From contig OX442314.1 of the NCBI GenBank assembly GCA_949358305.1, positions 27,466,001 to 27,530,000 on the forward strand: a DNA stretch of 64,000 nucleotides, read 5' to 3'. Positions 11,880 to 53,866 of the stretch are shown piece after piece (positions within the stretch are counted from its first letter, which is position 1; the number at the start of each line of letters is the position of its first letter). The translations under genes were made by a program, and so were the position numbers. The notes beneath the pieces were generated by a model. The model was not told where the DNA came from. It saw only the letters and a program-made list of their open reading frames with translations, and ran no database searches. The DNA is from Strigamia acuminata (Eukaryota).

Positions 11880-11881
11880 AG

Positions 11882-13569: not shown

Positions 13570-16500
13570 TTAGTATTTTTTCTTTAATTTTAATAACTTA
13601 GAAACCAGCTTTTGCAAGAGTTGTGGAATTGCAAGAATCGAAAAGCCAAGCATCAGTGAAAAACAATTTCCAATGTCACAACACAGTGCAACTGCAGTGT
13701 AGGATAATACTTGTTTAAACTCTTCAATTATGTTATTCAGTGGAATTATTGAAAGAACTTTGATTGGCCATGCATCGGGATGTTGAAAGTAAACATATGT
13801 GTCAAACACTTGTTCTTCACAAAGTGGATGACAACCGCACTCTTTCATTACATTAATAGTTAAAGATCTGTTCATGAACAATGCCAATGAAGTTTTAGCA
13901 TCTTCAATATTAGTACAATCATCCTTTTTGATGTTGACCAAAAATGGTAACCTGAAAATATTTGAATAACACATTACAAACTACATCGTAGAACGTTTAG
14001 TACAAAGTTCGAAAGTGTCATTTCTTTGGGTTTTTTATTTTGTAAAGAAAGAAAAACCACTAAAATGATACGTATGACAAATTTCTGCGTGAATGCTAAA
14101 AGAAAAAATACTCACTTGCACTGAATTTCATTATATATCTTTTTTTCGTAGCAATCGTCTTGGCATCTTTCGTGTTTGTCTCTGTCAAGGCAAGGTTGAG
14201 ATTGTAAATTCAATCGGATGGTCTAAATTAAAGCAATTAGTTAAGCAGTTTTGTTTAGAATTGTCTGCAAACATCGTACTTTAAACATTTTGAATGTGAG
14301 AATGGTAAACGTTTTTGTTTTAATAGATCTTCTGCTCTTGAGAATTGATGGAATGGATGGGATTGTCGCTTCGCTTTGTTGAAAGTACACCTGCAGAAAG
14401 AATAATATAATTTATTGTAGTATTCAAGATCAGTTTGCTTCTGATGAAATAGCCTTGCAGTTAACTAACAAGGGGAGCACATGAATAACACACTCACAGA
14501 TTGTTGTCATATTAAACAAGAAGGATTGTTATATCATGCTGAATGAGACCCTAAAGTTATTTCATTCCATAAACAGCCAACAATGCAAACAATGAGCTGA
14601 AAGTTGGCACTATTTTGTCTGTGTATACATCCAATCTGAGCAATCAGGCCTAGTGTATGAATACGATAAACAACAGTTGCTAGGTAAAAAGTAGTTCCAA
14701 GATCCAAGTTGAATTTTATCATTTGATATTCAATGATGTCATTTCATCATTTGAGATTTAACGATGTCATGACATCAGAATTTTGTTTACCAACATGACT
14801 GTCTTCATGAAGACAACAATAGTTTGTAGTGGTGGTCCAGTGGTTAAGGCAATGGACTAGGAATCTTTCTACACAGGTTCAAATCCTGATGTGTTTGAAA
14901 ATTTTTACTCCTATATTTTAAATTTTTTTTGCAGTAATTTTAATGTTTGTAATTTTATGTTTGTTAAAAAATTAAAATTAATTAATTATTAAAGTTTTCT
15001 AAAAACAAACATAAAATTACAAACATTAAAATTACTGCTAAAAAAAATTAAAAAACAAAAGTAAAAATTTTCACAGACAGCAGGATTTGAACCTGTGTGG
15101 AAAGATTCCTAGTCCATTGCCTTAACCACTGGACCACCACTACAAACTACTATTGTCTTCATGAAGACAGTCATGTTGGTGAATAAAGTTGTGATGTCAT
15201 ATGTCATGAGATATCAAATGATGAAATGACCTCATTGAATATCAAATGATAAAATTCAACTTGGATCTTGGAACTACTTTTTACCTAGCAACTGTTGTTT
15301 ATCGTATTCATACACTAGGCCTGATTGCTCAGATTGGATGTATACACAGACAAAATAGTGCCAACTTTCAGCTCATTGTTTGCATTGTTGGCTGTTTATG
15401 GAATGAAATAACTTTAGGGTCTCATTCAGCATGATATAACAATTCTTCTTGTTTAATATGAAAACAATCTGTGAGTGTGTTATTCATGTGCTCCCCTTGT
15501 AAGCGTCTACAGCAGCGGTCGACAATAGGCGGATGCGGAAGGTCGAAACTTGGACCGCGGTGACGTTTTAGCGACGTTTTTCTTTCGGTTTCTTTGGTTT
15601 TTCTTTTTCGGTGTTTTTTTCTTGTTTTTCCTGTTTTTTTTTCCGTGTTTTTTTAGGTTTTATTGGTATTTTTTGGGTTGTGTGTGTTTATTGGGGGATT
15701 TTTTGGTTTTTAAATGTTTTTTCCGTTTTCTTAGGTTTTTAGTAAGGCTTTTAAGTGTTTTTTTTTTCTACACCGGGATAAAAATTTTCAATAGTATCCG
15801 GACCCCACTTAAAATTAATTCCCAACCCCTGGCCTACAGTATATGCCAAGTGCAATGCACTTATCTGAGTGCAAATGACAAATGGAACTTATTCATTACT
15901 TCGTAGTCATCTGGCTTACAGATTTGGCGACTGTTTGGTCGAAAACTAAAATATATTGCTGTAGCAACACCTGCATATGTTAGTGGACCTAAGAAAACAA
16001 TGTTGTTTTAGTAGTCCTATAATGTTTGCACACATGTTTAATTACCCATTTGAGATTGATAGCATGTTCCTGTGTGCATTGGTATTTTGCTCCAAGATAC
16101 ATTTGATCTGAATCCTAAGTTCTGATAAGAAAATACTTTTACCGGTCTACATAATTTTCTTAAATTTGGTTGAATTTGATTAAAGTCACGAGTTTCATTT
16201 AGCACTCACATTTTATCTAATAAGTTACATTTATCAAACGCCTTTTGAATCAATGGCTTTGTTTACATAATGCTTATGGACTCAATAGTGAGTTTGCGGT
16301 TGCCAATTGTTCCTTATAATTATGAGTTACAAGCTCATAATTATAAAATTGGACTTATAACATAACGTAACTCCTCAATTTTTACACTATTTTGTAAAAT
16401 AAGGGAGCCAATCAGATCGCTTAACACTATTTTAAGCTCCTCCCACTATTGCAAATGGCGCTGATGGTGCTAATAGAAATTCAAAATGGCTGCCTGACCT

Positions 16501-19500
16501 GTTTCAACAATCAGCCTCAATCACAATTTCTTTCTGCCATCGAAGGATAGAAACAACTAAAATCATTCCAGGTAAGCAAATAAATGAACTGGAAGACAAT
16601 TTCATGTCTGAAAACTGTCAAATTAGTAAAACTACAGATTTTCATTTTCTTTTGCATATGGATTTGTTCTACCATTACATGCAAGAGATTTGTACTGTTC
16701 ACATGGTATTTATAAGTATAATTTATAAAATGTTTATTGTACCGCAAGTGCCTATTTCAAGAAGGAATTATAATTATAATTATGAGCTTGTAACTCATAA
16801 TTATAAGGAACAATTGGCAACCGCAAACTCACTATTGACTCAACAGACATTTTTAAATATCGGACCAAACACTTACACTTTCAGCAAATTCCATGATGAC
16901 CTTATCCATTACGGGTGTTTGAAATCTCCATATATCTTCCATCGATGATTTTTTCCCTCCGATAGTCTTATTCATTAAATCAATGAAGTGAATTTTACAT
17001 TCTGGAATGCCTGTAGTTTTGGCATATTGGCTTCTGTAGTGTGTCATTAAGGGTCCATCCATACATGCAATGACGTTGGGCAAATATAATGTGTTATTTT
17101 CTTGAATATTTACTACATATCTTGTCGGTTCGCTCAAATATAATGCGATTCTTTCTTTGCTCACATAAACCGCTAGTAAGCCGGAAATAAAAACAAGAAT
17201 ACGATACAAGGTGCGTTGAAGCTTGGGCGAAGTTTTCATTGTCTTTTTCTTCAAATTTTCCAATTTGATTTGATTAACAATTTTGGTTTTTATCTGAGCA
17301 TGTAGTCGAACAGGTCTGATATAATTGCAGAAGAGGAGCAAACCAAAGTGTACAATTTCAATTATAGAGAGGAGTGACAATCCCAAGCAAAATCCTAGGT
17401 TGCCGCCCAAATCAATCACCAAATTAGGGATTTTGTAAATGTAGATTTCTGTCATCCACACAGATGTTTCTTGTGACACTTTAAAATTAATACTTGTACG
17501 ATTTATATCACTGGGTTCATCTTCAAAATCTAGCAGTTAAAGATAAATAATTTCATTATATTTATGCGTTAAAATGATATTGTTTGACGTAACTAGTATC
17601 GGTGTGCACTATTAGGAGATAAACTCTTGTTTGACAAGGTCTTAAGCAACCACATTCAATTGTTGCCAGCGTGGATGTTTCGGGTTTATACGAGTTTTTG
17701 TACACTTGATCCACGATTGATTTGTTTGCTTCTAAACTGCAGTCTGGCAGATTTTTGTCAGCCATGTAAGGCAATCTATCAAGTAAGTTAACCATCTATT
17801 AGCATCCTAATGAATGATCAATGTTTACGTTAAGTAAGTTTAAACCTGCACTTAGGATTGGCTTTGAGATTTTGCTTGGTCACACAGTTTTTATAACATT
17901 CGGTCTGCTTCTTCAGACTGGGCTCACAGTAGGGGTTTCTTGAAGGCAAAAATTGATACTTGCAGGAAAGAAATACAGTTTTACTATTTTGGTTATACAA
18001 GTATGTGTTGATTTATAAATTAAATGTATTATAAAAGATTTATAAATCATATGTATTATAAAAGCATAGAGATAACTATTTATTCAATGCGATTCACAGT
18101 TGAATAAGCTGCAAGAACTATACAAACAAGCAATTATAACTCACTTGACGCAAAATAAATTGAAATTCAGCTTCAATTCCCATCTGTATTGGCATAGTAT
18201 ATCTATACGGCATGACACCATCCTTCATTGACATCTAGCATTAAATGGTGGTATGTATATTATTTGTCTTGTGTGCGGTAGCGGTATACCGCACCGCGGT
18301 AATTTTTTGGGACGCAACACTGCGGTATTCAGCAAAATACCGCAAAACGGTATACCGCAATACCGCAAATACCGCAATACCGGATAATACTACAATACCG
18401 CAAATACCGCAATACCGGATAATACTACAATACCGCAAATACCACAAAAAGCTGCAACAAACTAAATGGCGCTTTAACCAATTGATCTGAAATTCTATCT
18501 AAACGCATAATGCCTTATACCAAAACGGGTACATTTTACTTTTATCTTTCCAACGGTTAAAAATACCGGATAAGGCTACCGATAGGTGCAGGCTATTTTG
18601 TCTAATCAGTTTATTTGACGCCATCTTTATGGCAACGACTATAGCAAGCTGATTTGACGAATCGATTTTGACAAAATAAACTGACCGTAATCATTGGTGC
18701 TTTACAGGTCCCATTTTTCTTAATGACGACATTAAATTTTCTGTTTAGAGCTAGTTTTAAATCTAGAAAAAATAGTTTAGTCAAAAATTATTTAAACAGA
18801 CTAGATGATTATCGTATATTAATTTCACCTGTTATTGTTACAGTCAGTGTACGGCCTGCTACATAATCGTTGTATTTTAATGCAATTGTTTTACCCCGAT
18901 TTGTATAATTGCCACTTTTTATCTTAGTGCCAAGTAACACAGTTTTGTCCTAAAAAAATTATTGGCAAATTATTGGAAACAATATTTATTAATATGACTT
19001 TTTTACGTATCCAAAAGAACATACTGTATAGTAAATATAATTTCTTTTTAAATTGCATAAAGGAATAAGGTTCCTTACCTGTCTGAATTTTATGTGCTGC
19101 AAATTTTCTGAAATGTTGGAATGTTCCCACAAGTGAGAATAATTTTCAACCTTGACTTGCTGTGAGATGATTCCTCTTACTGGGAGCCTGCAATCTCTCA
19201 TTAACTCGCTTGCACCATCAATTGTGTTCGGTTCTGGTATTTTGTCCCAGTACTTTGACATCAATGGAGTATCTAGGCCCATGAGCATAACTTCAGGGAA
19301 TCTGTTTTCCTGTATTGGAACATATTCAATTTCAACTTTGAAAGGTCCAGTCATGTAGAAGCGAAATCTTTCCCAAGTTTGATAACTGAAGATGCCGAAA
19401 CAAACGACTAAACCAAACAACCAAATGAAACGAAGTATTCCAGTGTTCTCGAGAACTTGGTTTATAAATTGAAAACTATCTTTGTCCGTCAATGAAGTTA

Positions 19501-19573
19501 TCATCTTTCGTTGCACGAATTGGCGAATACGATTACGGGTCCGGCGAATAAACAACGCTCTAGGAGCCGTCAT
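13570..19573 (-). CDS. Tandem two-domain DEG/ENaC-like channel, copy A (12 exons, ~830 aa)
   Basis: Phase-consistent GT-AG exons, approximately 19573-19079, 18949-18829, 18762-18687, 18234-18145, 17958-17846, 17780-17595, 17529-16877, 16121-16046, 15988-15900, 14391-14280, 14223-14117, 13951-13570. Motifs in order: RFIW-TM1, FPEV, Cys-rich thumb (CGCLRPC), DLGGNLGFCLGLS; then TM1', LPNVIAC, GTCY, CGCHPLC, DIGNCFSLMLGFS. Confidence 0.85.
14826..14893 (+). pseudogene. tRNA-Ser-derived sequence (Pol III A/B boxes), left arm of the foldback
   Basis: GTAGTGGTGGTCCAGTGGTTAAGGCAATGGACTAGGAATC...GGTTCAAATCCTG resembles tRNA-Ser(AGA); variable arm shortened, acceptor stem imperfect. Confidence 0.65.
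15073..15143 (-). pseudogene. tRNA-Ser-derived sequence, right arm of the foldback
   Basis: Inverted copy of 14826-14893. Confidence 0.65.
16287..16833. mobile_element. MITE (possibly PIF/Harbinger-ISL2EU group) in a copy A intron
   Basis: ~60-bp TIRs AGTGAGTTTGCGG...CCGCAAACTCACT, flanked by AAT/ATT; empty site in copy C near 36220. Confidence 0.75.
18270..18650. repeat. Intronic insertion with AATACCGCA-type short tandem repeats (non-autonomous TE remnant)
   Basis: Repeated AATACCGCA/AATACCGGAT units; present only in copy A. Confidence 0.5.
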
Positions 19574-19888
19574 TTTTCTTCAAATCAACTTTTAAAGCTA
19601 AAACTACATAACAGTTTAACGTTGATGGTACTTAAATGATGAAAACTAATTATATTTTAAATTAACTTTCGTATTTGGAAGTAATTTTAAATTAATTTAA
19701 TTTTTTTTTCAAACGAACTGAAAATGATTATGGTTGTAAAACTCCAAAAGTTAATTTGTTTTGAACTTAATATTATCTAAGGCAATGACTCTTTTCAATT
19801 TGTCAACATTAATGAAGGAAACTAAAGTCATTAAAGTTTAATGAAATATTGATGTTTCAAAACTATAAGCTGAATTTATGATGGATGT

Positions 19889-25591: not shown

Positions 25592-28500
25592 CTATTTTTT
25601 CTTTACTTTTAGTAACTTCGAAACCAGCTTTTGCAAGAGTTGTGGAATTGCAAGAATAGAAAAGCCAAGCATCAGTGAAAAACAATTTCCAATGTCACAA
25701 CACAGTGCAACTCCAGTGTAGGATAATACTTGCTTAAACTCTTCAATTATGTTATTCATTGGAATTATTGAAAGGACTTTGAATGGCCATGCTGCTGTGT
25801 GTTGAAAGTAAACATATGTGTCAAACACTGGTTCTTCACAAAGTGGATGACAACCACACTCTTTCATTACATTAGTAGTTAAAGATCTGTTCATGAACAA
25901 TGCCAATGAAGTTTTAGCGTCTTCAATATTGGTACAATCATTCTTTTTGAGGTTGACCAAAAATGGTAACCTAAAAATATTTGAATAACATATATTATAA
26001 ACTACATCGTAGAACGTTTAGTACAAAGTTCGCGAGTGTCTTTTTAAAAGCTTTTATTAAAGGCTTTTATTAAAGGCTTTTATTTAACTTGACTTGAATG
26101 TTTGTGTGTGGGGTTCAACCTTGGACTAATGAGTCCAAGGTTCAACTTCCGGTTTGTGTAATGTCCACAAACAATGAATTAAAAAATTAATCGTAAGATT
26201 GGGAAGTAGACTTTTCCGGTGCAGTTTTTGATCTACTTTTCAATTATAACAATAAAATTAATATTAAAAGTAGTTAAAGGGAGAAAATGTTAAATTACGG
26301 CGAAATGTAATGGAAAACAGTGTCACCTGGCGGAACCTATGTCCTTTAATGGATGCCAAAATGTTCGCCCGATACGAATTTTGATGATTTCGGCACAAAA
26401 AAAGAATTTATAAATTCTAAAACTAAGCTACCGTAAATCTGGTTAAAATGAAAATTCCTATTTGCCCATATATTTTGTTTTTTAATATTGTTAAGAAAAA
26501 GTACTTTTTTGAAATTTTTGTTTCAATCACGAAACAATCTGCGGTAGTAGCGCACTCTGGTGGCGATTTGAAGCCCCAAAATGACGTCACCCATTCGTGA
26601 TTTATGCGGCGTATACGTTTTTGATTGACGCCAACTCTGTCACCGATAGGCCTCTTTCTCTTAGTACCGCTCTTGCATCGTTTTGGCTTGCACCCTCTCA
26701 TAGTTTCCAGCATATCTACCGCCAACGCCTCAATACGCTCGCGTAACTCTTCCGACGGACACCGACCCAGATCCGCGAAGAGAACCTTAACCCTCTCGCA
26801 GACGGAAGGTGCACCGAAGAATAGCATAAAAGCCTTTTTCCAAAAACGTACCATAGTTCTTTTGTTTTACTTGTTTTGGTTTTTTTTATTTTGCTGAACA
26901 AAGAAAAACCGAACAAATAATACGTATGACAAATTTCTGCATAAATATTAAAAGAAAAAATACTCACTTGCACTGAATTTCATTATAAATCTTTTTTTCG
27001 TAGCAATCTTCTTGGCATCTTGTGTGTTTGTCTCGGCCAAGGCAAGGTTGAGATTGTAAATTCAATCGGATGGTCTAAAATAAAACAATTGGTTAAGCAG
27101 TTTTGTTTAGATTTGTCTGCAAACATACTTTAAACATTTTGAATGTGAGAATGGTAAACGTGTTTGCTTTAATACTTCTTCTACTTCCTAGAATTGAGGG
27201 AATTGATGGAATTGTTGCTTCGCTTTGTTGAAAGTACACCTGCAGAAAGAAAATTATATTTTATCACTGTATTAAAGATCAGTTTGATTCTGATGAAATA
27301 GCCTTGCAGTTAACTAAAATACAAGATGGTGCAGGTATATTTTATCTTCGTGCATACTGCTAACTTGTAAGGTCTATAGTAAATTTCTTACAGCATTAAT
27401 TAGTTAATTATGACTAGATCTTGGATAAATGCATAAATGCATAGAATATATTTATATTGAATAAAAAGCCGAAATTGGCTTAAATTGCATATTTTGCGAA
27501 AATCGGTAAATAAATGCAAACCGGTAAATTGCCTTTTTTCCAGGAAAAAACGGCGATTTGTGTCTTTTTTTAATGATATGTAACATGTACGTATCAATTT
27601 TTGCCTTTTTTTTAAAGACGTGTATCGTGTACATATGCTTTATATTCGGAAAACTGAGGACTTCGCCAATAACAGACACCAAGGGAATCACTAAATGAGT
27701 GTCTAGAAAATATTTTCAGAAATAAACAAAAAAAAAATTAAAAAAAAGAAAGAAATGAATTGTAATTACTAATTATAATTCATTTACATCAAGAACACTT
27801 GGAAATAGCATTACTTCAGAGCTTTGAACTAGAAGGAGCTCTCGAGTGAACTTTGAACTAGAATGAGCTCTCAGTTCAAAGTTCAAAGTTCACTCAAATA
27901 AATTTTTTTATTTTGCATAAAATGGAATTTTTGGTGCATATAAAACGAAATTTATTTTTCATAAATATCTGGGGTCTAAATGACGGAGTTTGTGTAGTTA
28001 GCTAAGCTCCTATTTGCCAAGTGCAATGTGCTTATTTTAGTGCTGTGTAAGATCAACAGTTGGTGAGAAATAGGAATTTATTCATTACTTCGTACTCATC
28101 TGGCTTACAGATTTGACGACTGTTTGGTCGAAAACTAAAAAATATTGCTGTAGCAACACCTGCATATGTTAGTGGACCTAAGAAAACAATGTTGTTTTAG
28201 TAGTCCTATAATGTTTGCACACATTTCTAATTACGCATTTGAGATTGATAGCATGTTCCTGTGTGCATTGGTATTTTGGTCCAAGATACATTCGATCTGA
28301 ATCCTGTGTTCTGATAAGAAAATACCTTTTACCAGTGAATTCAGTTACCTTAAATTTGGGAGAATTTAAGTAAAGGCACGAGTTTCATCTAGCACTCACA
28401 TTTTATCTAATAAGTTACATTTACCAAATGCCTTTTGAATCAATGGCTTTGTTTACACAATGCTTATCGACCCATTGACCCAACAGAATACAGAAAATTT

Positions 28501-31189
28501 TAATTATCGGATCAAACACTTACACTTTCAGCATATTCCATGGTGACCTTATCTATTACGGGTGTTTGAAATCTCCATACATCTTCCATCGATGATTTTT
28601 TCCCTCTGATAGTCTTATTCATTAAATCAATGAAGTGAATTTTACATTCTGGAATGCCTGTAGTGTTGGCGTATTGGCTTCTGTAGTGTGTCATTAAGGG
28701 TCCGTCCATACATGCAATAATGTTGGGCAGATATAATGTGTCATTTTCTTGAATATTTACTACATATCTTGTCGGTTCGCTCAAATATAATGCGATTCTT
28801 TCTTTGCTCACATAAACTGCTAGTAAGCCGGAAATAAAAACAAGAATACGATACAAGGTGCGTTGAAGCTTAGGCGAAGTTTCCATTGTCTTTTTCTTCA
28901 AATTTTCCAAATTGATTTGATTAACAACTTTTGTTTTTATCTGAGCTTGTAGTCGAACAGGCCTGATATAATTGCAGAGGAGGAGCAAACCAAAGTGTAC
29001 AATTTCGATTATAGAGAGGAGAGACAATCCCAAGCAAAATCCTAGGTTGCCGCCCAAATCGATGACCAAATTAGGAATTTTGTAAATGTAGATTTCTGTC
29101 ATTCTGACAAATGTTTCTTCCATCGCTTTAAATTTTATACTTGCTAAATCTTTACTACTGGGTTCATCTTCAAAATCTAACAGTGAAAGATGAATAATTT
29201 TGTTATAATTACACGTCAAAATGATATTGTTCGACTTAACTAGTATCGGTCTGCACTATTAGGAGATAAACTCTCGTTTGACAAGGTCTTAAGCAACCAC
29301 ATTCAATTGTTGCCAGCGTGGATGTTTTGGGTTTGAACGAGTTTTCGTACACTTGAGCCACGATTGATTTGTTTGCTTCTAAACTGCAGTCTGGCAGAAT
29401 TTCGTCAGCCATGTAAGGCAACCTAAGTTAACCATCTATTAGCATACTAATGAATGATCAATGTGTACGTTAAGTAAGTTTAAACCTGCACTTTGGATCG
29501 GTTTTGAGATTTTGCTTGTTCACACAGTCTTTATAACATTGGGTTTGCTTTATCAGGCTGGGCTCACAGTAGGGCTTTCTTGAAGGCAAAAATTGATACT
29601 TGCAGAAAAGAAATACAATTTTACTATTTTAGTTATATGTATTGATTTACAAATCAAATGTATTATAAATGCATAGAGATAACTAATCATGCAACGCGAT
29701 TCACAGTTGAATAAGCTGCAAGAAATATACAAGCAAGCAATTATAACTCACTTGACGCAAAATAAATGGAACTTCAACTTCAATTCCCATCTGTATTGTA
29801 AAAGTATATCTATACGGCAGGACACCATCCTTCGCAGACATCTATTATTAAATTGTGTTATGTATATTATATTAATTTTACACTAGGTGCATTCAAAATA
29901 TCATGTTTCAAATGTTTTGTTTGTTTTTCTTATTCTTTTTTTGACATCAGAAATCAAAAACACAAATCCATACAGTGGTCGCCAAAAGTTTAGCACCACT
30001 ACTGTCATTTGCACTATTTAGTGCTTTTACAACAAGTAAAACCTGCAGCGTTTTTGTGATATAAAATATAAATTTGCCATTAAATTCTAAATTCTTAAAT
30101 GCTAAAACATTTAAACAAATCATACATTGTAATTAACAATAGTAATTTTTAGTGTTTGTATACAAATTGTTGCTGGACAAAGGTTTAGTACCAAATTCAA
30201 AAATGCACAAAAAACCTGGTTTCTTCAGAAAATCATTATTTATTTGAACAATATATTTCAATATTTTGTTGGCTAACCAACTAATAAGTTGATTTGACTT
30301 ATCGATTTTGCAAAATGAACTGACCGTAATCATTGGTGCTTTACAGGTCCCATTTTTCTTAAAGACGACATTAAATATTCTGTTTAGAGCTAGTTTTACA
30401 TCTAAAAAAAATTGCTTAGTCAAAAATTATATAACCAGACAAGATAATTATCGTATATTAATTTTACCTGTTGTTACAATCAGTGTACGGCCAAAAACAT
30501 AATCGTTGTATTTTAATGCAAATGTTTTACCCTGATTTGTATAATTGCCACTTTTTATCTTAGTGCCAAGTAACACAGTTTTGCCCTAAAAAAGTTATTG
30601 GCAACAATATTTGTTAATACGGATTTCTTAGGTATCCAAAAGAACAGTATATATAATTTCTTTTTAAATTGCACAAAGGAATAAGGTAACTTGCCTGTTT
30701 GATTTTGAGGTACTGCATATTTTCTGATATGTTGGAATGTTCCCACAAGTTTGTATAATTTTTAACCTTGACTTGCTGTGAGATGATTCCTCTCACTGCG
30801 AGCCTGCAAGCTTTCATTAACTTTTGTGCACCATCAATTGTATTCGGTTCTGGTATTTTGTCCCAGTACTTCGACATCAATGGAGTGTCAAGAGCCATGA
30901 GTCTCACTTCAGGGAATCTGTTTTCCTGTATTGGAACAAATTCGATTTCAACTTTGTAAGGTCCAGACATGTAGAAGCAAAATCTTTCCCAAGTTTGATA
31001 ACTGAAGATGCCGAAACAAACGACCAAACCAAGCAACCAAATGAAACGAAGTATTCCAGTGTTCTCGAGAACTTGGTTTATAAATTGAAAACTATCTTTG
31101 CCCGTCAGTGAAGTTTGCATTTTTTGTTGCACATATTGGCGAATACGGTTACGGGTCCGACGAATAAGCAACGCTCTAGGAGCCGTCAT
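25592..31189 (-). CDS. Tandem two-domain DEG/ENaC-like channel, copy B
   Basis: Same exon series and motifs as copy A; the intron-1 donor is GC (GCAAGT). Not every exon was translated. Confidence 0.82.
26041..26875. mobile_element. Helentron/DINE-like insertion in the last intron of copy B
   Basis: Same family as 23560-24119, inverted; absent in A and C; inserted in a T-run. Confidence 0.5.
27415..27978. mobile_element. Degenerate TIR element in a copy B intron
   Basis: TAGATC...GGTCTA imperfect ends; absent in copy C; TSD unclear. Confidence 0.4.
29973..30270 (+). mobile_element. Tc1/mariner-like remnant shared by copies B and C (C: ~37709-37990)
   Basis: TA|CAGTGG..AAAAGTTTAGCACC end at the same intron-3 position in both copies. 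Confidence 0.55.
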
Positions 31190-34722: not shown

Positions 34723-37700
34723 TTAGTATGTTTTCTTTAATTTAACTAACTCAGAAATCAGCTTTTGCAAGAGTTGTGGAATTGCAAGAATAGAAAGGCC
34801 AAGCATCAGTGAAAAACAATTTCCAATGTCACAACACAGTGCAACTCTAGTGTAGGATAATACTTGTGAATACTCTTCAATTATGTTATTCAGTGGAACT
34901 ATTGAAAGAACTTTGATTGGCCATGCATCGGGATGTTGAAAGTAAACATATGTGTCAAACACTGGTTCTTCACAAAGTGGATGACAACCGCACTCTTTCA
35001 TTACATCAGTAGTTAAAGATCTGTTCAAGAACAATCCCAATGAAGTTTTAGCGTTTTCAATATTGCTACAATCATTCTTTTTGATGTTGACCAAAAATGG
35101 TAACCTAAAAATATTTGAATAACTTATATTACAGACTACATCGTAGAACGTTTAGTACAAAGTTCGTAAGTGTAATTTCTTTGGGTTTTTTTTATTTTGT
35201 AAACAAAGAAAAACCAAGCAAATGATACGTATGACAAATTTCTGCGTAAATACTAAAAGAAAAAATACTCACTTGCACTGAATTTCATTATAAATCTTCT
35301 TTTCGTAGCAATCGTCTTGGCATCTTTGGTGTTTGTCTCGGTCAAGGCAAGGTTGAGATTGTAAATTCAATCGGATGGTCTAAATTAAAACAACTGGTTA
35401 AGCAGTTTTGTTTAGAATTGTCTGCAAACATACTTTAAACATTTTGAATGTGAGAATGGTAAACGTGTTTGCTTTAATTCTTCTTCTGCTTCTGAGAATT
35501 GAGGGAATTGATGGGATTGTTGCTTCGCTTTGTTGAAAGTACACCTGCAGAAAGAAAATTATATTTTATCATTATTAAAGATCAGTTTGCTTCTAATGAA
35601 ATAGCATTGCAGTTAACTAAAATACAAGATGGTGCAGGTATATTTTATCTCCGTGCATTCTGCTAAGCTCTATAGTAAATTTCTTACAACATTATTTAGT
35701 TGGATTATGAGTGTATGACAATGAGTTTTTGCAGTTAGCTAAGGTCGAGCTTAGCAGATAGGGTTGTATCTGCCAAGTGCAATGTACTTATTCGAGTTCT
35801 GTGCATGATCAACAGTTGATGACAAATGAAATTTATTCCTTACTTCATACACATCTGGCTTACAGATTTGACGACTGTTTGGTCGAAAACTAAAAAATAT
35901 TGTTGTAGTAGCACCTGCATATGTTACTGGACCTAAGAAAACAATGTCGTTTTAGTCGTTCTATAACTTTTGCACAAATTTTTAATTACTAATATGAGAT
36001 TGATAGCATGTTCCTGTGTGCATTGTTATTTTGCTCCAAGATACATTAGATCTCAACCCTGTGTTCTGATAAGAAAATACAATTTTGTTAAATTTGGGAG
36101 AATTTGATTAAAGGCACGAGTTTCATCTAACACTCGCACATTTTATCTTACGGGTAACGACTTACATTTATCAAATGTCTTTTGATTCAATGGCTTTGTT
36201 TACACAATGCTTATTGACTCATTGACTCAACAGACATTTTTAAATATCGGACCAAACACTTACACTTTCAGCAATATCCATGGTGACCTTATCCATTACG
36301 GGTGTTTGAAATCTCCATACATCTTCCATCGATGATTTTTTCCCTCTGGTAGTCTTATTCATTAAATCAATGAAGTGAATTTTACATTCTGGAATGCCTG
36401 TAGTGTTGGCATATTGGCTTCTGTAGTGTGTCATTAAGGGTCCGTCCATACATGCAATAATGTTGGGCAGATACAATGTGTCATTTTCTTGAATATTTAC
36501 TACATATCTTGTCGGTTCGCTCAAATATAATGTGATTCTTTCTTTGCTAACATAAACTGCTAGCAAGCCGGAAATAAAAACAAGAATACGATACAACGTG
36601 CGTTGAAGCATGGGCGAAGTTTTCATTGTCTTTTTCTTCAAATTTTCCAAATTGATTTGTTTAACAACTTTTGTTTTTATCTGAGTTTGTAGTCGAATAG
36701 GTCTGATATAATTGCAGAAGAGGAGCAAACCAAAGTGAACAATTTCAATTATAGAGAGGAGAGACAATCCCAAGCAAAATCCTAGGTTGCCGCCAAAATC
36801 GATCACCAAATCAGGAATTTTGTAAATGTAGATTTCTGTCATTCTGACAAATGTTTCTTCCATCACTTTAAGATTTAAACTTGCTAAATCTTTACTACTG
36901 GGTTCATCTTCAAACTCTAACGGTGAAAGATGAAGAATTTTGTTATAATTACACGTAAAAATGATATCGTTGACTTAACTAGTATCGGTGTGCACTATTA
37001 GAAGATAAACTCTTGTTTGACAAGGTCTTAAGCAACCACATTCAATTGTCGCCAGTGTGGATGTTTCGGGAAGGTAGGAGTCGTCATACACTTTAAACAC
37101 AATTGATTTGTTTGCTTCTAAACTGCAGTCTGGCAGATTTTTGTCAGCCATGTAAGGCAACCTAAGTTAACAATCTATCAGCATTATCAATTGTTTCAGT
37201 GAACTAAGTTTACAGACCTGCATGGTGGATGTTTTTTTAGAGTTTGTTTTGTCACACAGTCTTCATAACATTGCGTTTGCTTTATCAGGCTGGGCTCACA
37301 GTAGGGCTTTCTTGAAGGCAAAAATTGATACTTGCAGAAAAGAAATACAATATCACTATTTTAGTTACATGTATTGATGTACAAATCAAATGTATTATAA
37401 ATGAGAGATAACTAATTATGCAACGCCATTAACAGTTGAATAAGCTGCAAGATATATAGAAATAAGCAATTATAAGTTAACTCACTTGACGCAAAATAAA
37501 TTGAAATTCAACTTCAATTCCCATCTGTATTGGCATAGTATATCTATACGGCATGACACCATCCTTCATTGACATCTAGCATTAAATGGTGTTAAGTATA
37601 TTATATTAATTTTACACTAGCTGCATTCAAAAAGTCATGTTTTAAATGTTTTAGGTGTTTGTTTTTCTTATTCTTTTTTAAACATTAGAAATCAAAAACA

Positions 37701-39318
37701 CAAACATACAGTGGTGGGCAAAAGTTTAGCACCACTATTGTCATTTGCAGCGGCTTTCTAATACAAAATATGAATTTGGCCTTAAATTTTGCTTTTAGAA
37801 AATGCTAAAACATTTAAACAAATCATACATTGTAATTAACAATAGTAATTAACAATAGTAATTTTTAGTGTTTGTATACAAATTGTTGCTGGACAAACGT
37901 TTAGCACCGCATTCATAAAAGCACAGGAAACCTGGTTTTTTCAGAAAATCATTGTTGATTTGAACAATACATTTCAATATTTTGTTTGCTAACCGACTAT
38001 ACTCTGTCCATGTATAACTTGGTCCTATTTCCCATTGGCTGAGCCTCATAACTCACTTTGTGCTGCCACCAGGAAAAATAGTTCAGAGTGATCTTAAATT
38101 TGTTTGATGATTTTAATCATTGAAATGATGTAATGTTGTTTGTATTTTCTAAGTAAATGTATCTTGAAGTTATAAAATAAAGATTTATGTTGGTTTATTT
38201 CAACATTCCTGTTTATTAAGTTTATTGCTTGCTTCTTCCAGGAAACAAAAGAATTTTTAAATTTTTTTATTGGTTGTTTTGTCTGGAAAGCAGTCAAAAT
38301 GGCAACCATTGTTTTGATCTATTTTTGGCATCACTACACAAGTGAAAAGGCTCTGCCAATCGGAAATAGGCCCAAGTTACACAAGGACAGAGTGTAATAA
38401 GTTGATTTGACGTATTGATTGTGACAAAATAAACTGACCGTAATCATTGGTGCTTTACAGGTCCCATTTTTCTTAAAGACGGCATTAAATTTTCTGTTTG
38501 GTGCTAGTTTTAAATCTAAAAAAAATAGCTTAGTCAAAATTTATATTAACAGACAAGATAATTATCGTGTATTAATTTTACCTGTTGTTACAGTCAGTGT
38601 ACGGCCAAAAACATAATCGTTGTATCTTAATGCAATTGTTTTACCCTGACTTGTATAATTGCCACTTTTTATCTTAGTGCCAAGTAACATAGTTTTGCCC
38701 TAAAAAAGTTATTGGCAAATTATTGGAAACAATATTTATTAATATGGCGTTTTTACGTATCCAAAAGAACATGTAGTAAATATAATTTCTTTTTAAATTG
38801 CATAAAGGAATAAGGTTACTTACCTGTCTGAATTTTATGTGCTGCAAATTGTCTGAAATGTTGGAATGTTTCCACAAGTGAGAATAATTTTCAACCTTGA
38901 CTTGCTTTAAGATGATTCCTCTCACTGGGAGCCTGCAATCTCTCATTAACTCTTTTGTACCTTCAATTGTGTTAGGTTCTGGTATTTTGTCCCAGTACTT
39001 CGACATAAATGGAGTATCAAGAGCCATGAGTCTCACTTTAGGGAATCCGTTTTCCTGTATTGGAACAAATTCGATTTCAACTTTGTAAGGTCCAGACATG
39101 TAGAAGCGAAATCTTTCCCAAGTTTGATAACTGAAGATGCCGAAACAAACGACCAAACCAAGCAACCAAATGAAACGAAGTATTCCAGTGTTCGCGAGAA
39201 CTTGGTTTATAAATTGAAAACTATCTTTGCCCATCAGTGAAGTTTGCATTTTTTGTTGCACATATTGGCGAATACGGTTACGGGTCCGACGAATAAGCAA
39301 CGCTCTAAGAGCCGTCAT
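34723..39318 (-). CDS. Tandem two-domain DEG/ENaC-like channel, copy C
   Basis: Same exon series and motifs as A and B (DFGGNLGFCLGLS; DIGNCFSLMLGLS). Not every exon was translated. Confidence 0.83.
38000..38394. mobile_element. TA-flanked MITE in copy C intron 3
   Basis: TACTCTGTCC...GGACAGAGTG TIRs with TA TSD; empty site in copy B near 30280. Confidence 0.8.
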
Positions 39319-43403: not shown

Positions 43404-43605
43404 TTTTTAAACTTGTGTTACTAATTTCCCACCTACATAGAAGATTGGTTAAATAAATTAATAAATCCATTTCAATTCCAAAGGATTGGTGACTTTAAAT
43501 AACAATTGTAAATTATTGTTCATGTTAACCGGTCCCAGCATTCACAGTGAGAAGCAAAATGACACAGAATGACCAGGCGGCCCTCTGCAACCCAATAATA
43601 CCGTT

Positions 43606-44573
43606 CCGTCCCATTTCCGTCTCATTTTCGTCCCATTTTCGTCCCATTTCCGTCCCATTTCCGTCCCATTTCCGTCCCATTTCCGTCTCATTTCCGTCTC
43701 ATTTCCGTCTCATTTCCGTCTCATTTCCGTCTCATTTCCGTCTCATTTCCGTCTCATTTCCGTCTCATTTCCGTCTCATTTCCGTCTCATTTCCGTCTCA
43801 AATCCGTCTCATTTCCGTCTCATTTCCGTCTCATTTCCGTCTCATTTCCGTCTCATTTCCGTCTCATTTCCGTCTCATTTCCGTCTCATTTCCGTCTCAT
43901 TTCCGTCTCATTTCCGTCTCATTTCCGTCTCATTTCCGTCTCATTTCCGTCTCATTTCCGTCTCATTTCCGTCTCATTTCCGTCTCATTTCCGTCTCATT
44001 TCCGTCTCATTTCCGTCTCATTTCCGTCTCATTTCCGTCTCATTTCCGTCTCATTTCCGTCTCATTTCCGTCTCATTTCCGTCTCATTTCCGTCTCATTT
44101 CCGTCTCATTTCCGTCTCATTTCCGTCTCATTTCCGTCTCATTTCCGTCTCATTTCCGTCTCATTTTCGTCTCATTTCCGTCTCATTTCCGTCTCATTTC
44201 CGTCTCATTTCCGTCTCATTTCCGTCTCATTTCCGTCTCATTTCCGTCTCATTTCCGTCTCATTTCCGTCTCATTTCCGTCTCATTTCCGTCTCATTTCC
44301 GTCTCATTTCCGTCTCATTTCCGTCTCATTTCCGTCTCATTTCCGTCTCATTTCCGTCTCATTTCCGTCTCATTTCCGTCTCATTTCCGTCTCATTTCCG
44401 TCTCATTTCCGTCTCATTTCCGTCTCATTTCCGTCTCATTTCCGTCTCATTTCCGTCTCATTTCCGTCTCATTTCCGTCTCATTTCCGTCTCATTTCCGT
44501 CTCATTTCCGTCTCATTTCCGTCTCATTTCCGTCTCATTTCCGTCTCATTTCCGTCTCATTTCCGTCTCATTT
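43606..44573. repeat. Homogeneous 11-bp tandem array (CCGTCTCATTT), ~88 copies
   Basis: Direct reading; a few variants, mostly at the left end. Confidence 0.97.
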
Positions 44574-45637
44574 CTCTCCCATTCTGCAGAATAATGCTGA
44601 TTTGGATTGGAATTTTAGGCGCAAACCGTAAGTAATTAAGAATTTATTTATTTTTTATAAGTGTAGAATTTATATGATACAGATATGGAATTCCAATACG
44701 GGGTGGATGGGTTTAATCCTCATATAGTTTACTTGACGATTAGGGCTGAGCTCAAGTCTCGGCCCCAATTATGGAAAGAAATAAAGGAAAGTGTTTTTGG
44801 TGTAACTTATGTCCAGACTGACCTTCGACAAAAGTGGTTTCCAATTAATCCAGTAAATCCACCTTGGCAACGAGATACATTGTTTGCTTAATACAAGTAA
44901 TTACAATATGGATAATTTGTTAAGAAATCAGAAAATAGTTTAACGTGGTTGGAGTTTTTTGAAATAACAAATATTGATAAAATCACAAATTTTTAAACAT
45001 TTACCACCTACATAGAAACGACAAATGTATTTAGAGATGCATTCCAAAACTGACAAGTCTTTTGTGTGTCCATCCAGTCCAATGTGTTAGTAAAAGTGAA
45101 ATCCGTGAGAAACACGTTAAAAGATTAGTTTCAGTTAGTTTACGTGTGTTACTAGGTGACCAAATTAGCTTTTGATTATCTTACAATTCTTTCAAATTAT
45201 ACTAGTCAATACGTGATCTATCTCGAGTGCATTGATGAATGCATTCGTAAATGTGTCAAAGTTTAGCTTGAGCTGAGATAAAACTGGAGGTAAAAGTAAG
45301 AGCGGAATGTTTGGAATGCATCTTGTACATAATGTTATTACGGTATTGCTATTGTGCATGCACTGTAATACGTATTGGGCACCGACAACGGATATACACA
45401 TTTATAACTTAGAAGAGCGAGTAGGATTATATTTTTGATGCAGAATTACGTCAAAGAGGGCATCATCACCCACAGAAGTAACAACCAGGATATTCAATAT
45501 CACAATAAAAAACAATTTCAGGAATAAACAGTGCCAATAGAAAGCAATTCCCATCAAGAGAGGGCATTAAAAGCACAACAAACAATCCCCTCTGAATCTT
45601 TTTTTAGCCTCAATTTCTTTTGACCTGGATTCCTATC

Positions 45638-48600: not shown

Positions 48601-50248
48601 ACAATCTGTTTGTCTCGCATTTTATCTATTGCACGCTCATTTAAATGACACAGTCGCTCATGCCACAATTCCTTGCTGGCTGGGCGAGGTTGCACAGAAA
48701 CTGCGTTGGCTTCCTCTCCAACCCATTGGTGCAGTAAATACATGCTGCCATTTAATGTTCCTGTTGCAATCGTCATTCCTCTTGGGTCCTTAATTTCCGC
48801 GACTTTATTGTTGAATGAAATCGCATAATTATTAGCGGTAAGACGTGGAATTGACAACAGATTGCCTTTCAACTCTGGCACAAATAAGACGTCGAGGAGC
48901 AAAATCTTCATGAATTCCGTTTCTGAAAGCTTGCATCTCAAAATGATATTCCCTTTCCCCGTAGCCAACAATTTTGCGCCCTTTTTGGCTGTGGTGACCA
49001 CTGCTTCGATTTCCTTGAAAGTCCCAAACAATTCCCGTTTTCCAGACATATGCGCCGACGCGCCGGAATCGAGAATCCACTCGTCTTGACAATCGTCGCC
49101 GCCCAAATCGACGACAAAAGCATGCTGGATAACCGCTTCCTGTTGTGCTATTTTTGCCGTGGCTGCCTCTCTTGGTCGTTGTGACGCTGGACTCGGCCTC
49201 TTTTCGGGGTAGCGCTGCCAACAATTCTTGGCAATGTGGCCACTTTTACCACATTCATAACAGGCTGATTTTGAAACGTTTTTCAACTTCTTGCCGCCCG
49301 AATTACGTCCCACCTGCGCCTTGAACGCAACCGTCACGTTGTCCACGGTCTGTCCCTTTGAGTGGAATGTCGCCCACTGATCTTCCATTTTCAGTGACCG
49401 TCGCAAATCTTCAAATTTCGCGTCTGCCGCGTCACGATAATTTCGTGCAATATTGCCATATTTTGGCAAAAGTCCTCGTGTCGTGTAATGAAGAATCTCG
49501 CGGTCCGAAACAACCTTTCCTACCGCTTTGGCTTTTGCCTGAATCGACTTGGCCCTGTTCAAGTAACCATCCGTCGACTCGTCGTGTCTCATGCGCAGCT
49601 CCGCAAGTTCCGAACCAGCGTCAATTTGTCGCTCTTCCGTGGTACCTGCGTACTGCGCTTTCAACGCCTCCCAAAGCGCCTTGGCCTCGGTAAAAGCCAT
49701 ACAGTTTGTGGCTTCTTCGTCCGACATCGTTAAAACTATAATCCCTAAAGCCTCGTCATTATTTTTGGCCCACGCTTCGTGCTTCTTCAGCGCGTCTGCA
49801 TACGTTGCATCCGTCGCGTCGGGCACTATCGGCTCCGGTTTCGTGATGACGCCTTTCAAACCTTTTGCAGCTAGAAGTGTCCCCACTTTGAATTGCCAAG
49901 TAAAATAGTTTTGAGGTTTTAGAAGTTCAATTCGATTCAAAGATGTACTTGCAATCGCATCCGCCATCTTCCTTGTTCGATCGTTACGCCTTGTTTTTCA
50001 ATTCTTCTTTCACCGCAAATTCTCCACAAATCGTCGCCAAAATGGAACGTTTCTATCTTGCAAAGAAACCAGACTCCTGCTACCACTTGTGAGTGTACGT
50101 GTGTGTGCAGAAAATGTAGGAAGAAGAAAGCTTTTTCAACAAGAAACTGATGAGATGTATATTCAATACAAGTAACACAATAATACAGAACATGCGCGCA
50201 GTGCGCGTTACCAAGCAACTTAAACTATGATAACATATATATCTCACA
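45638..50248 (-). mobile_element. Intact Ty1/Copia LTR retrotransposon
   Basis: Identical 161-bp LTRs (45638-45798, 50088-50248; TG...CA), 5-bp TSD CTATC, iMet-like PBS TGGTAGCAG (ending at 50085), PPT GAGGGGGA. Confidence 0.98.
45903..49967 (-). CDS. Copia Gag-Pol polyprotein (1354 aa), uninterrupted
   Basis: CCHC knuckle, DSGAS protease, LWHERLCH..CTAC, integrase SDNGGE, RT YVDD, RNase H ADFLTK, in Copia order (IN before RT). Confidence 0.96.
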   Translation of the reverse strand: MADAIASTSLNRIELLKPQNYFTWQFKVGTLLAAKGLKGVITKPEPIVPDATDATYADALKKHEAWAKNNDEALGIIVLTMSDEEATNCMAFTEAKALWEALKAQYAGTTEERQIDAGSELAELRMRHDESTDGYLNRAKSIQAKAKAVGKVVSDREILHYTTRGLLPKYGNIARNYRDAADAKFEDLRRSLKMEDQWATFHSKGQTVDNVTVAFKAQVGRNSGGKKLKNVSKSACYECGKSGHIAKNCWQRYPEKRPSPASQRPREAATAKIAQQEAVIQHAFVVDLGGDDCQDEWILDSGASAHMSGKRELFGTFKEIEAVVTTAKKGAKLLATGKGNIILRCKLSETEFMKILLLDVLFVPELKGNLLSIPRLTANNYAISFNNKVAEIKDPRGMTIATGTLNGSMYLLHQWVGEEANAVSVQPRPASKELWHERLCHLNERAIDKMRDKQIVHGLEYADVHLEKCTACTLGKMTRSPYKRVKGKQSSEVLQLIHGDMVGPFQTASLGGSKYALILTDDFTRKKFAFFLREKSQCFEHFEIFKNMAEKQTGYKLKRFRSDNGGEFVNANFKRFFESEGILHELTVPFNPSSNGISERANRTLVEAARTLLIKSGLPLKFWAEAIATSVYVKNRSFTKPNGDFTPEELWSKHKTTVAFLRIFGCEAFLHIPEEKRRKLDPKAKHGIFVGYSVDRKAYRIYVPKDGKVEEGRTVGFNEEVRGADVFGLNDEGAKQRFCQEEEDAIFPVEPVNELQDAQDEVEHPVIAVDDAAPQPLQPVQVGRPRGATKAALEQRLAEQLAQREERLQQEGVRRSERIAAQQEAVNAAIECVEELFTPETYVEAVNCNDRKKWQEAMDSEINSLHINKVWTLVKRERQTVTVKSKWIFRIKLNADRSVNKYKARLVAVGYSQRPGVDFTETFSPVVRMESLRIILSMIARHGLLTRQFDIKTAYLYGLLDEVIFMEQPEGYEQDDLVCRLERSLYGLRQSGRCWNERLDQELIKIGLKPLINDRCVYIYRHKNDYIILGVYVDDILAAFTRQRILDRILKRLKKVFEIVDMGEVHFLLGMEISVTKDGVYVGQQKYVNDILTKFDLLNGITAKTPMATGQDLEDFDKSKKVDQNLYQQIIGSLMHLMIVSRPDLSYAVSALSAFSKDPRQLHFRAAKRVLRYVNGTKDLRLFFSSKEGSLQGFADASWCVTQDAKSHTGLILKIGDATIGWKTKRQRLVAMSTTESEILAICELLKIIKWARDFLSEVGEGDCVPRCVPIYTDCTPGIQVLCGSNQFGRTKHMNRHMMFIKDDLKLGNIKLVHLPSAEMVADFLTKPLAKDKFEEGRDRVGLQDDAKMKEEEQ

Positions 50249-50647: not shown

Positions 50648-53600
50648 TTAATATATTTTTTTGAATTTTGCTAATTGAAAATACATTTTGTGCAAGAGTT
50701 GTGGAATTGCAAGCATAGAAAGACCAAGCATTAGTGCAAAACAATTTCCTATATCGCAGCAGAGTGCAACTCCATTATAGGATAATATTTGTGTAATCTC
50801 TTCGATTATATTATTCGTTGGAATTATGACGAGAATTATGAGTCCCCATGCTTCAGGATGCTGAAAGTAGACAAAGGTGTCGAACACTGACTCTTCGCAA
50901 GGTTGGTGACATCCACAATCTTTCATTAAATCAACTTTTAAGGAACTGTTCATGAACAATGTCAATGATGTCAGGGCATCTTTAGCGTTGGTACAATTAT
51001 CCTTGTTTATCTTGTTCAAAAATGGTAACCTGGAAATATAAAACAAGGACATATACGGAGCACATTGAAACAGATATACTGTATATCTTTTCCAATCTTT
51101 TTACAACTCACTTGCATTGGATAATATTATATATCTTTTTGTGGTAACAATCATCCTGGCACCTTTTATATTTGTCGGGGTCGAGGCAAGGTTGCGAATG
51201 CAGGTTCAATCGAATGTTCTAAATTAGAATAATATATTAATATTAATTTTATTTTTAATTTATAATTATTTAGGCCTGTGCTTTTAGCATCCTGAATGTA
51301 AGCACGGTGACTGTGTTTCGTTTAATATTTCTTCTACTTCTGAGAATTGATGGTAATTTTTCTTCACCTTTTTTAAAGTATATCTAAAGGTAGAAATTTA
51401 TTGTTTACAACAATTTTTTCTGGCATCATATGATCAGAAATGGACGTCATTTGGCATATTTTATTCACAAAATTGATACATTACTTCGTACATGTCCGGA
51501 TTGCAGGTTTTATCTGAGTTTGGTAAAAAACCGAAAAATATCACTGAGGCAGTCCCTGCATATTTCATTGGTCCTGAGAAAAATTATGACCATTAAATTT
51601 TAAATAGTTCACTAAAATTTGAAACTACAATACCGATATCAGATTCGAAGCATAGTCCAGTGTGCATAGCTTTTATGTGCCAAAATACATTATTTTTTAA
51701 GCTAGTTAACTGCAAAACATTAATAAACATGAGGTTTTTAGCGAAATAAAGGATTTAGAAAATTGTCCTACTCTCTCCCATTATAAATTATTACGGAGTA
51801 TTATAATTAACATCTTTGAATTAGTGAGCTCTTAAACAGAGCAGGGCTTCTTAAACTGTGGGTTGCAAATCCATATGGGATTTTGTAACTGAATGTGGGG
51901 TCGCAAAAATGTTTGATTTGTATAGACACCTATATACAGTACCAGCTTAACTAGATGATGATTCATCTAAAACTTACTTTCTTAGCCAGCCACATATTAG
52001 GATCATCCATTTTATGTGTTTGCAGTCTCCATACATCCTCTATTGATTGAGTTTTTCCTCGGATAGTCATATTCATTAAATTGATGAAATGCATCTTGCA
52101 TTCATTCGTGCCTATTTCTTTGGCAAATTTTCTCCTATAGTAAATCATTCTGGGTCCATCCATACATGCAATTACATTAGGCAAATACAATGTGTTATTT
52201 TCTTGGATAATTACTACAAGTCTTGTCGGTTCACTTAGGTAAAGTGATATTCTTTCCTTGCTAACATAGAATGCTAGTGGGACGAAAATAAATATGAGAA
52301 TAAAATAGAACAGGCGTTGCAGGACAGGTTTCATTTTTTGCTGCAATATCTCTTCCTGTGAATCTGCAATTGCATTTTTTTTATGAATTGCCAAATGCAT
52401 TTGACTGGTAATTTTACTCTTGATGTTAGCTTCAAGTTGACTAGGTCTGATATACTTATACAAAAGGAGCAGAACGAGCTGTGCAATTTCAATTATAGAG
52501 AGAAGAGAAAATCCCACGGAGAATCCCAAATTGCCCCCAAAATCTATCAGCAAGTTAGAAATTGTGTAAATGTAGACTTCTGTCATTCTGATAAATGTAT
52601 CTTCCAGCATTTTCATGTAAAAGCTTAAAAATTCTTTGTTCTTTTTAACATCTTTAAAACCTAACAGAGATGAATTATTTTATTTATTATACATGAACAT
52701 GGTTTATATTAGCTTAACGGTTATCGCTTTGTGTAATGGGGAGATAAACATTGTTATGACAAGGTCTCAAGCAGCCACATTCTAATGATTCCAATGTAGC
52801 TATTTCATGACTGAAAGATTTTGCATACAACGTAGCCACAATTGATTTGTTTGGTTCTAAACTGCAGTCTGGTAGATTTTTGTCTGTCATGTAAGGCAAC
52901 CTAATTTAAAAATCCATTACTATAGTGTTCATTGGTTTACTTTGTATAATAGGTTTTGACCTGCATTTAGGATGAGTTAGTTGGATTTGTTTTGTCACAC
53001 AGTCTTCATAACATTAGATTTGTTTTTTCTGATTTGGTTCGCAAAAAGGATACCTCATAGGCAAAAATTGATACTACCAATAAGAAATACAGGATGTTCA
53101 CAAAGTCTTTAGACAAATTGAAAATAAATTTACACCCTAATATTAGATGGTAGCAAAACACAGTAATTTCTTTTTGCATATTAATCCTCAGAGGCATAAG
53201 GCTATATGAGTTTAAGAACGAGTACTTTACTTTATTGAATTGGAAAATGTTTTCCCTATTGATTTTGTCACAATTAATTTGAGTGTTATAAATTAATTTG
53301 ACTTAGTATCGTGCAAAAGTTAATTTGGCGCAAATAAGTGTACAAAGACCTAGATGCAATTGCTCAGGAAATATTTGAGGGGAACAGACTTTTCTTCCAC
53401 CCTGTATATTGGTAGTTTCACATACTTTTCGAAAAAGAAGTAGTATTCCAGTCTCTATTCCCACTTTCATCGGCATAACATATCGATATGGCATGCTATC
53501 ATCGTTGATACCTACCTGTAAAGAATATTAAATTTTTCTGAATTGAAATTACATTTTGGCATAGTGAAATAAAAATAATTTTAAATGAACGGTCTTACAG

Positions 53601-53866
53601 TAAGAAATGGTACATCACATGTTCCATTTTTTTTAAACATCATCTGGGTTGTCATAGTTTGAGCTACTTTTGCGTTATTGACATCTAAATAAAAATTGAG
53701 AAAATGTTAGATAGAAAGTAAAATTAAAACATTCTGACTTCCTGTTACCAAGCCTAATGATCAGCACATTTCCAACTACGGCATTTTTATATTTATATGA
53801 AATAGTAATGCCCTCATTTTTATAAATTCCATTTGCCATTGAAGATTCCAACAATACAGTCTTGCC
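50648..53866 (-). pseudogene. Divergent two-domain DEG/ENaC-like paralog, copy D (from exon 2 onward), probable pseudogene
   Basis: Homologous exons (DFGGNLGFSVGFS, LPNVIAC, CGCHQPC, DIGNCFALMLGLS). In-frame TAA at 53014-53016 where paralogs have CAA/GAA. Exon 1 not found in the window. Confidence 0.72.

Follow-up and report, generated by a model that had tools for sequence, protein, structure and literature searches.

A gene family of the centipede Strigamia acuminata encodes two diverged DEG/ENaC channel subunits in one polypeptide, a fusion that, judging by the genomic sequence, is very probably secure as a coding feature. It was found in a stretch of 64,000 nucleotides (contig OX442314.1, positions 27,466,001 to 27,530,000; hereafter the window, numbered from its first letter) that is AT-rich animal DNA with long terminal repeat (LTR) elements and holds four minus-strand DEG/ENaC paralogs, A to D. 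DEG/ENaC/ASIC channels are taken to consist of three separate subunits with two transmembrane segments (TMs) each, and the order of subunits in heteromers is usually studied by means of artificial concatemers. Chances appear even that the natural chain described here fills two neighbouring positions of a trimer and that a separate single subunit completes the channel.

Gene models of the four copies

The model of copy A was built by hand and its splice sites were transferred to obtain the models of B and C; like that of D, they are predictions from DNA. Copy A (13570..19573) has 12 exons, at 19573-19079, 18949-18829, 18762-18686, 18234-18145, 17958-17846 and 17775-17594 (exons 1-6) and at 17529-16877, 16121-16046, 15988-15900, 14390-14280, 14222-14116 and 13951-13570 (exons 7-12). 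As claimed in a preliminary description of this stretch, these chain in phase, giving 831 amino acids (aa) with two DEG/ENaC units and no internal stop. Copies B (25592..31189, 829 aa) and C (34723..39318, 830 aa) also have 12 exons and are intact. All introns of the three copies are GT-AG, bar a GC donor in intron 1 of B, none of the frames contains an internal stop, and the proteins are 86-88% identical to each other and about 58% identical to D.

The preliminary description counted four two-subunit genes, which stands for A, B and C but not for D. Copy D (50648..53866) consists of exons 2-12 only and is likely a pseudogene, with a premature TAA in the thumb exon (53016-53014) and a weak GC donor; a search with an exon-1 hidden Markov model (HMM) did not find its exon 1 within the 64-kb window. 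The stop is present in an exact-match genomic contig and 5-6 other contigs have a sense codon there, which makes D a disabled copy among intact relatives. These contigs stem from two sequencing runs of one study, the reads of which cover introns and behave as genomic DNA. Over copy D (51900-53900) the depth of exact-match contigs is 220-280 in run X1, about half that of unique A-B pieces (420-555), and many diverged contigs map onto the same region; D may be present on one haplotype only, and more paralogs may exist elsewhere. Outside the four models the family HMM detected no convincing exon of a third unit hidden in the window.

The junction exon

In copy A, exon 7 (16877..17529) contains the end of unit 1 (TM2, with GLS at 409-411 and, before the TM2 Asp, Ile398 at what we take to be the Deg site), a basic linker (17225..17314, aa 432-461, with in-frame Met457) and then TM1 and the first palm/finger part of unit 2. 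The corresponding exons of B (28524..29176) and C (36264..36916) follow from Pfam ASC matches and the splice model, and that of D (51978..52660) is 683 nucleotides (nt) long, an in-frame excess of 30 nt over A-C. The four open reading frames (ORFs) said to cross the junction without a stop are indeed open on the minus strand, and each shows the proposed order of D[LF]GGNLGF..G[LF]S..IIE, basic linker, second TM1 and LPN[VI]IAC. Each also carries two Pfam ASC (PF00858) stretches, the number that had been expected of the spliced model, with E-values from 1e-14 to 9e-12; the best corresponds to the C-terminal TM2 end of the profile. The linker is basic as stated earlier and slightly shorter than the 35-45 aa given then, our anchors placing about 30 aa between the TM segments in A-C and about 40 aa in D. 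Across 22 aligned junctions it ranges from 23 to 51 aa, is predicted to be cytoplasmic and lacks a shared motif.

An open stretch of 36-46 codons has a probability of 3.5-7% at intron composition and is weak evidence by itself, so the case is built on homology to ASC either side of the junction, on the 30 nt by which D differs from A-C while keeping the frame, and on the relatives described below. Exact contigs in both genomic runs span the junction of D (52174-52508 and 52158-52508), which is therefore not an assembly join. Most of it is also spanned by a gapless contig with 25 differences, which suggests that the genome has a further fused paralog or allele in another place. With the junction lying within one exon, ASC similarity on either side and contigs across the junction of D, a merge of neighbouring gene models is ruled out, as the preliminary description had maintained.

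Completeness of the two halves

Each half of A, B and C covers a single-unit DEG/ENaC profile nearly end to end (139-153 bits), the profile having been built from 40 DEG/ENaCs of the relatives search reported below rather than from a blind set. Pfam ASC scores above its cut-off in six of seven stretches, namely those from the junction exons and from the first and last exons; the thumb exon has no match. The halves of one chain are only about 20% identical, and both retain TM1, TM2, the GxS motif and the thumb cysteines. Four hydrophobic peaks per chain (Kyte-Doolittle, KD, 1.46-2.2) agree with the four TM helices predicted earlier; the third is weak in A-C (about 1.5) and reaches 2.2 in D. The TM2 signature is DLGGNLG...GLS in unit 1 and DIGNCFS...G[FL]S, with two glycines replaced, in unit 2.

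Four TM helices and a largely helical linker were also obtained when the relative P0007 was modelled at full length with AlphaFold2 (predicted local distance difference test, pLDDT, 69.7; predicted template modelling score, pTM, 0.67). Its unit 2 matches BRTNaC1 (Z 20.8, root mean square deviation, rmsd, 4.3, 326 residues aligned) and its unit 1 PDPNaC1 (Z 19.1, rmsd 4.6, 313 aligned), in both cases ahead of ASICs. Both halves match BRTNaC1, PDPNaC1 and ASIC chains at Z 13-21, i.e. they have the palm/thumb/beta-ball fold of ASIC1. An Atlas search with P0007 returned ASC clusters only, and among the matches listed these are of single-unit size.

The HG motif preceding TM1 is absent before the unit-1 TM1 of A-C and from the linkers, and unit 2 of the window copies has lost its pre-TM1 region. 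HG is not obligatory, since functional PDPNaC1 also lacks it (PMC12714832). Sequence and fold tests all place the copies in DEG/ENaC, the exceptions being HG and the chain architecture of two units with four TMs. Pickpocket (PPK) chains rank below centipede, FaNaC and ASIC5 chains in the sequence matches, and in trees with few insect PPKs the window units do not group with midge units. Compared with D, the ratio of nonsynonymous to synonymous change (dN/dS) amounts to 0.27-0.39 for the halves and to 0.53-0.60 for the linker, unit 2 being constrained at least as much as unit 1; among A-C the linker value is 1.89, resting on 8 differences.

Origin of the fusion

Intron phases are 0-1-0-0-2 in both halves, a coincidence with a probability of about 1% at the gene's own phase frequencies, and four of the five intron pairs lie within one column of an alignment made without intron information. 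The equivalent C-[RK]|LP[YF] intron that had been noticed in both halves is thereby confirmed, and three further introns coincide.

A profile search of 1.84 billion representatives yielded 109 matches, the best being P0001 from Strigamia maritima (E 8e-99, 63% identity), which has the same junction. The succession of TM2 and TM1 occurs in 35 of 110 stored proteins; at least nine of the 35 are from S. maritima, and P0011, P0012, P0036 and P0042 were grouped with these by the trees. The S. maritima proteins T1ITA9, T1JD34, T1ITL7, T1IPM9, T1J963 and T1JEH2 have two units and the same TM2-linker-TM1 junction, so that a related genome, where the preliminary description proposed to look for fused orthologs, does contain fused relatives; the two-unit records of this species are automatic 'uncharacterized' UniRef models. 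Word-based protein searches, a weak instrument, gave 0 of 1123 longer candidates, 3 of 7864 and 1 of 2661, and no transcript-derived two-unit centipede protein.

In a tree of 90 rows, from which 7 short units were dropped and BRTNaC1 and PDPNaC1 left out, 11 first units fall on one side of a branch (Shimodaira-Hasegawa-like approximate likelihood ratio test, SH-aLRT, 95) and nine second units on that of another (89). A mixture model with 45 rows recovers both groups at SH-aLRT 84. This separate grouping of first and second units indicates that the fusion is old. Forcing the window halves together was rejected (approximately unbiased test, p-AU, 0.00025), which rules out recent internal duplication and, together with the shared intron sites, bears out the suggested origin from two tandem ancestral genes. 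The simplest reading of these trees is that the genes fused once, long ago, and that the fused gene then multiplied.

Not all multi-unit proteins fit this pattern. The units of midge P0015 group together and those of leech P0017 group with single-unit proteins, and both proteins look like merged neighbours. P0002, P0004, P0014, P0036 and P0068 have two or three near-identical units per model, with a single-unit member besides, and represent either a younger chain-forming family or merged neighbours; the S. maritima group P0002/P0004/P0014 among them may consist of merged neighbours and is kept outside the support. P0011 and P0012 have longer linkers with a pre-TM1 remnant, FQxPGLQYIL, possibly an intermediate stage of the fusion.

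Pore residues

The second Gly of DxGG is present in 21 of 21 unit-1 rows versus 1 of 10 unit-2 rows, and glycine occupies the PDPNaC1 Gly378 position in 19 of 21 as against 2 of 10, with the numbering taken from the alignment to PDPNaC1 and four of the ten unit-2 rows being near-identical window copies. In unit 2 of copy A the DIGNCFS-type TM2 (13600..13698) has Ser803 at this position. In PDPNaC1 Gly378 forms the constriction, and Gly378Ser raises Na+ selectivity (PMC12714832). The single-unit relatives P0023 and P0031 also have the second Gly replaced.

The presumed Deg site of unit 1 is Ile in all four copies (17416-17414 in copy A), versus S, T, C, A, G or N in the other 19 aligned first units (Ala in S. 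maritima P0001). In RPK, valine at the Deg site has a dominant activating effect (PMC2132602), so by analogy basal opening of the window channels is possible.

Assembly of the channel

DEG/ENaCs are trimers (PMC9974506), hence two units leave one position open. In the reading we prefer, the old fusion of two diverged tandem genes would hold two types of subunit in a set order and pairing, and the chain would act like a covalent counterpart of the ENaC beta-gamma dimer, its pore helix being rich in Gly in unit 1 and bulkier in unit 2. The fixed pore asymmetry fits a chain that gives two different walls of one pore. The third subunit would be either the product of a single-unit gene or a hybrid that the fused gene itself yields by exon skipping. 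Joining exon k to exon k+7 preserves the frame in all five cases in each of A, B and C and results in proteins of 418-434 aa; those of copy A score 121-139 bits. Such a hybrid layout, a unit-1 front with a unit-2 back, is seen in P0112 of S. maritima (T1IS61, 514 aa), a model that may be a prediction artefact. A complex prediction of P0007 unit 1, unit 2 and the unit-1 ectodomain, in which the alignment was not used, scored 0.02.

Several points weigh against this assembly. Copies A-C are predicted from DNA alone, no single-unit partner gene was detected within the window by the family HMM, and the exon-skipped forms are only arithmetically possible, as a by-product of duplication. The modelled P0007 is only about 21-26% identical to the window protein, so its fold stands for the relative. 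Tree supports are SH-aLRT only and moderate, with long branches, and dN/dS among A-C is weaker evidence of constraint than the comparison with D (0.32-0.79 per half; 0.70 overall for B-C). To these are added the partial redundancy of the unit-2 rows given above and the linker methionines discussed below. Finally, engineered fusions of two ASIC1a subunits carry current on their own (PMC4529235), which means that a partner is perhaps not needed.

This last point, the absence of a single-unit gene from the window and the retention of TM1, TM2, GxS and thumb cysteines by both units all speak for self-assembly of the chain, the closest competitor, which nevertheless seems unlikely. Either two chains would form one trimer with one unit hanging, or three chains would form two linked pores, two of them filling two positions each and the third bridging both. 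Trimeric channels are bulky, and bridging them becomes harder with linkers as short as those of the 22 junctions, which in the P0007 model are largely helical. Also, a 2:1 mix of either unit would fit the fixed pore asymmetry less well.

The halves could instead become separate subunits, if the linker is cut or if translation starts internally at its Met, and would then form ordinary heterotrimers; we see little likelihood of this. An in-frame Met directly precedes the second TM1 in all four copies and is found in 16 of 22 aligned linkers versus 11.5 expected (p about 0.04, the rows not being independent), so an internal start is possible but the excess is marginal. The linkers are basic, and the engineered fusions gave smaller bands that suggested cleavage or incomplete synthesis (PMC4529235). 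Against this, unit 1 has no stop of its own, AATAAA and ATTAAA are absent from the junction exon of all four copies, and the pre-TM1 region is lost in unit 2 of the window copies. Cleavage is the least supported of the assembly options listed in the preliminary description, because the linker is predicted to be cytoplasmic and the 22 junctions share no motif.

Very unlikely is a non-conducting role, in which the chain is a two-unit accessory or sensor modulating other DEG/ENaCs, or one unit a mere scaffold. It would account for the replaced pore glycines of unit 2, the missing HG before TM1 of unit 1 and the weakly hydrophobic second TM1 of A-C; however, PDPNaC1 conducts without HG and tolerates Gly378Ser (PMC12714832), single-unit P0023 and P0031 replace the second Gly as well, and unit 2 is constrained at least as much as unit 1 in the comparison with D. 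It is hardly credible that the copies are duplicates in decay, or products of faulty assembly or gene modelling, and are not expressed as one protein. In favour of this stand the broken copy D, the many LTR elements of the window and the multi-unit matches P0015 and P0017, which look merged, their units grouping by protein or with single-unit genes. Against it, a single exon contains the junction, which is spanned in D by exact contigs of two runs plus that of a diverged paralog, three frames of about 830 codons are intact with canonical splice sites, P0001 shares the junction at 63% identity, and the units group by position in the trees.

Three-unit chains in a shrimp and on further contigs

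Three TM2 signatures are found in P0022, P0035, P0038 and P0085 of Halocaridina rubra and in six related proteins from ENA/Logan contigs (P0064, P0084, P0087, P0096, P0110 and P0111). P0022 and P0035 have three full units; in the others the middle unit is shrunken. Several are uninterrupted ORFs on contigs of 3-4.5 kb. P0084 (1029 aa on 3405 bases), P0087 (999 aa on 3960) and P0064 (941 aa on 3247) leave little or no room for introns and are therefore not merged gene models. The units group by position, first units at 97 and seven of eight third units at 86, apart from the centipede units. The AlphaFold2 model of P0084 is poor (pLDDT 53.3, pTM 0.36) and has six long helices. These chains, with six predicted TMs, are possibly whole trimeric channels in one polypeptide. 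They share the TM2-linker-TM1 junction with the window genes and differ from them in having three units and in grouping separately.

Taken together, arthropods may have hard-wired DEG/ENaC stoichiometry twice, in an expanded family of two-unit chains of geophilomorphs with an open slot and in three-unit chains of crustaceans, each a whole asymmetric channel, a conjecture we consider unlikely. It includes filling of the slot by single subunits, among them hybrids of the same gene that skip exons k+1 to k+6. If true, geophilomorph centipedes would have a combinatorial sensory-channel system, and the shrimp chains, if real, would be ready-made single-chain channels.

Other elements of the window

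An LTR retrotransposon occupies 1-13060, with LTRs at 1-1059 and 12002-13060 that are 100% identical, a gag-like ORF with zinc knuckle (11796-9181) and an 893-aa ORF without Pfam match (3996-1318); its sequence marks it as a very recent insertion. A retroelement protease ORF at 61657-64000 is related to it. Directly downstream of copy D lies a Copia-type element (45638-50248) whose 1364-aa polyprotein is intact; its 161-bp LTRs are identical, and it has a target duplication of 5 bp. An insertion with inverted repeats resembling a miniature inverted-repeat transposable element lies in intron 9 of copy A (about 14680-15290, read by eye, in a region of very high depth). A short-period tandem repeat at 43573-44628 gives a long spurious ORF, and a low-complexity repeat block spans 55300-57180.

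Comparison with known systems

The fusion is real, and two-unit proteins are already in UniRef as uncharacterised automatic models. We found no description of a natural fused DEG/ENaC in the literature covered, which did not include supplements, where such models may be listed. The available parts of PMC8438182, PMC5203786, PMC10148893, PMC9822975, PMC9974506 and PMC12714832 contain no passage on fused, tandem or concatemeric DEG/ENaCs, and that of the Strigamia genome paper does not mention ENaC. From a two-unit family that is natural, old and expanded one could learn how a trimeric channel answers the mismatch of two into three and which pore residues evolution has chosen for each position; myriapods would also gain a large candidate family of sensory channels that has been overlooked. 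That the channels sense pH, heat or chemicals is a guess by analogy with the closest characterised relatives. Two-domain ENaC gene models, often thrown out as merges, can be real.

Those relatives, the centipede antennal channels BRTNaC1 and PDPNaC1, are the best sequence matches of the window units among solved chains and the best fold matches of the P0007 model. Like the window units they are compact, about 420-430 aa; PDPNaC1 shares the lack of HG with unit 1 (PMC12714832), and BRTNaC1 has seven exons (PMC9974506), as does the unit-1 portion of the window genes, a likeness of exon count. They are single two-TM subunits, PDPNaC1 being reported as a homotrimer, whereas the window genes encode two diverged units in one four-TM chain, at about 18-21% identity. 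The ENaC beta-gamma dimer (PDB 9BTU) has an empty third position that several subunits can fill (10.1101/2024.05.28.595834). It resembles the proposed chain in having two fixed, different subunits and one open position, but beta and gamma are products of separate genes that form a non-covalent dimer, and the window family lies outside the ENaC subfamily (11-12% structural identity). Engineered ASIC/ENaC concatemers demonstrate that head-to-tail linkage of TM2 to TM1, the order found in the window, works (PMC4529235). These consist of identical subunits with full termini, whereas the fusion in the window is natural and old, with diverged halves and trimmed termini. K2P channels, two-pore channels (TPC) and four-domain Nav/Cav channels are natural fusions of subunits in one chain as well; chains of two or four repeats add up exactly to a tetramer, whereas two units do not go evenly into a trimer.

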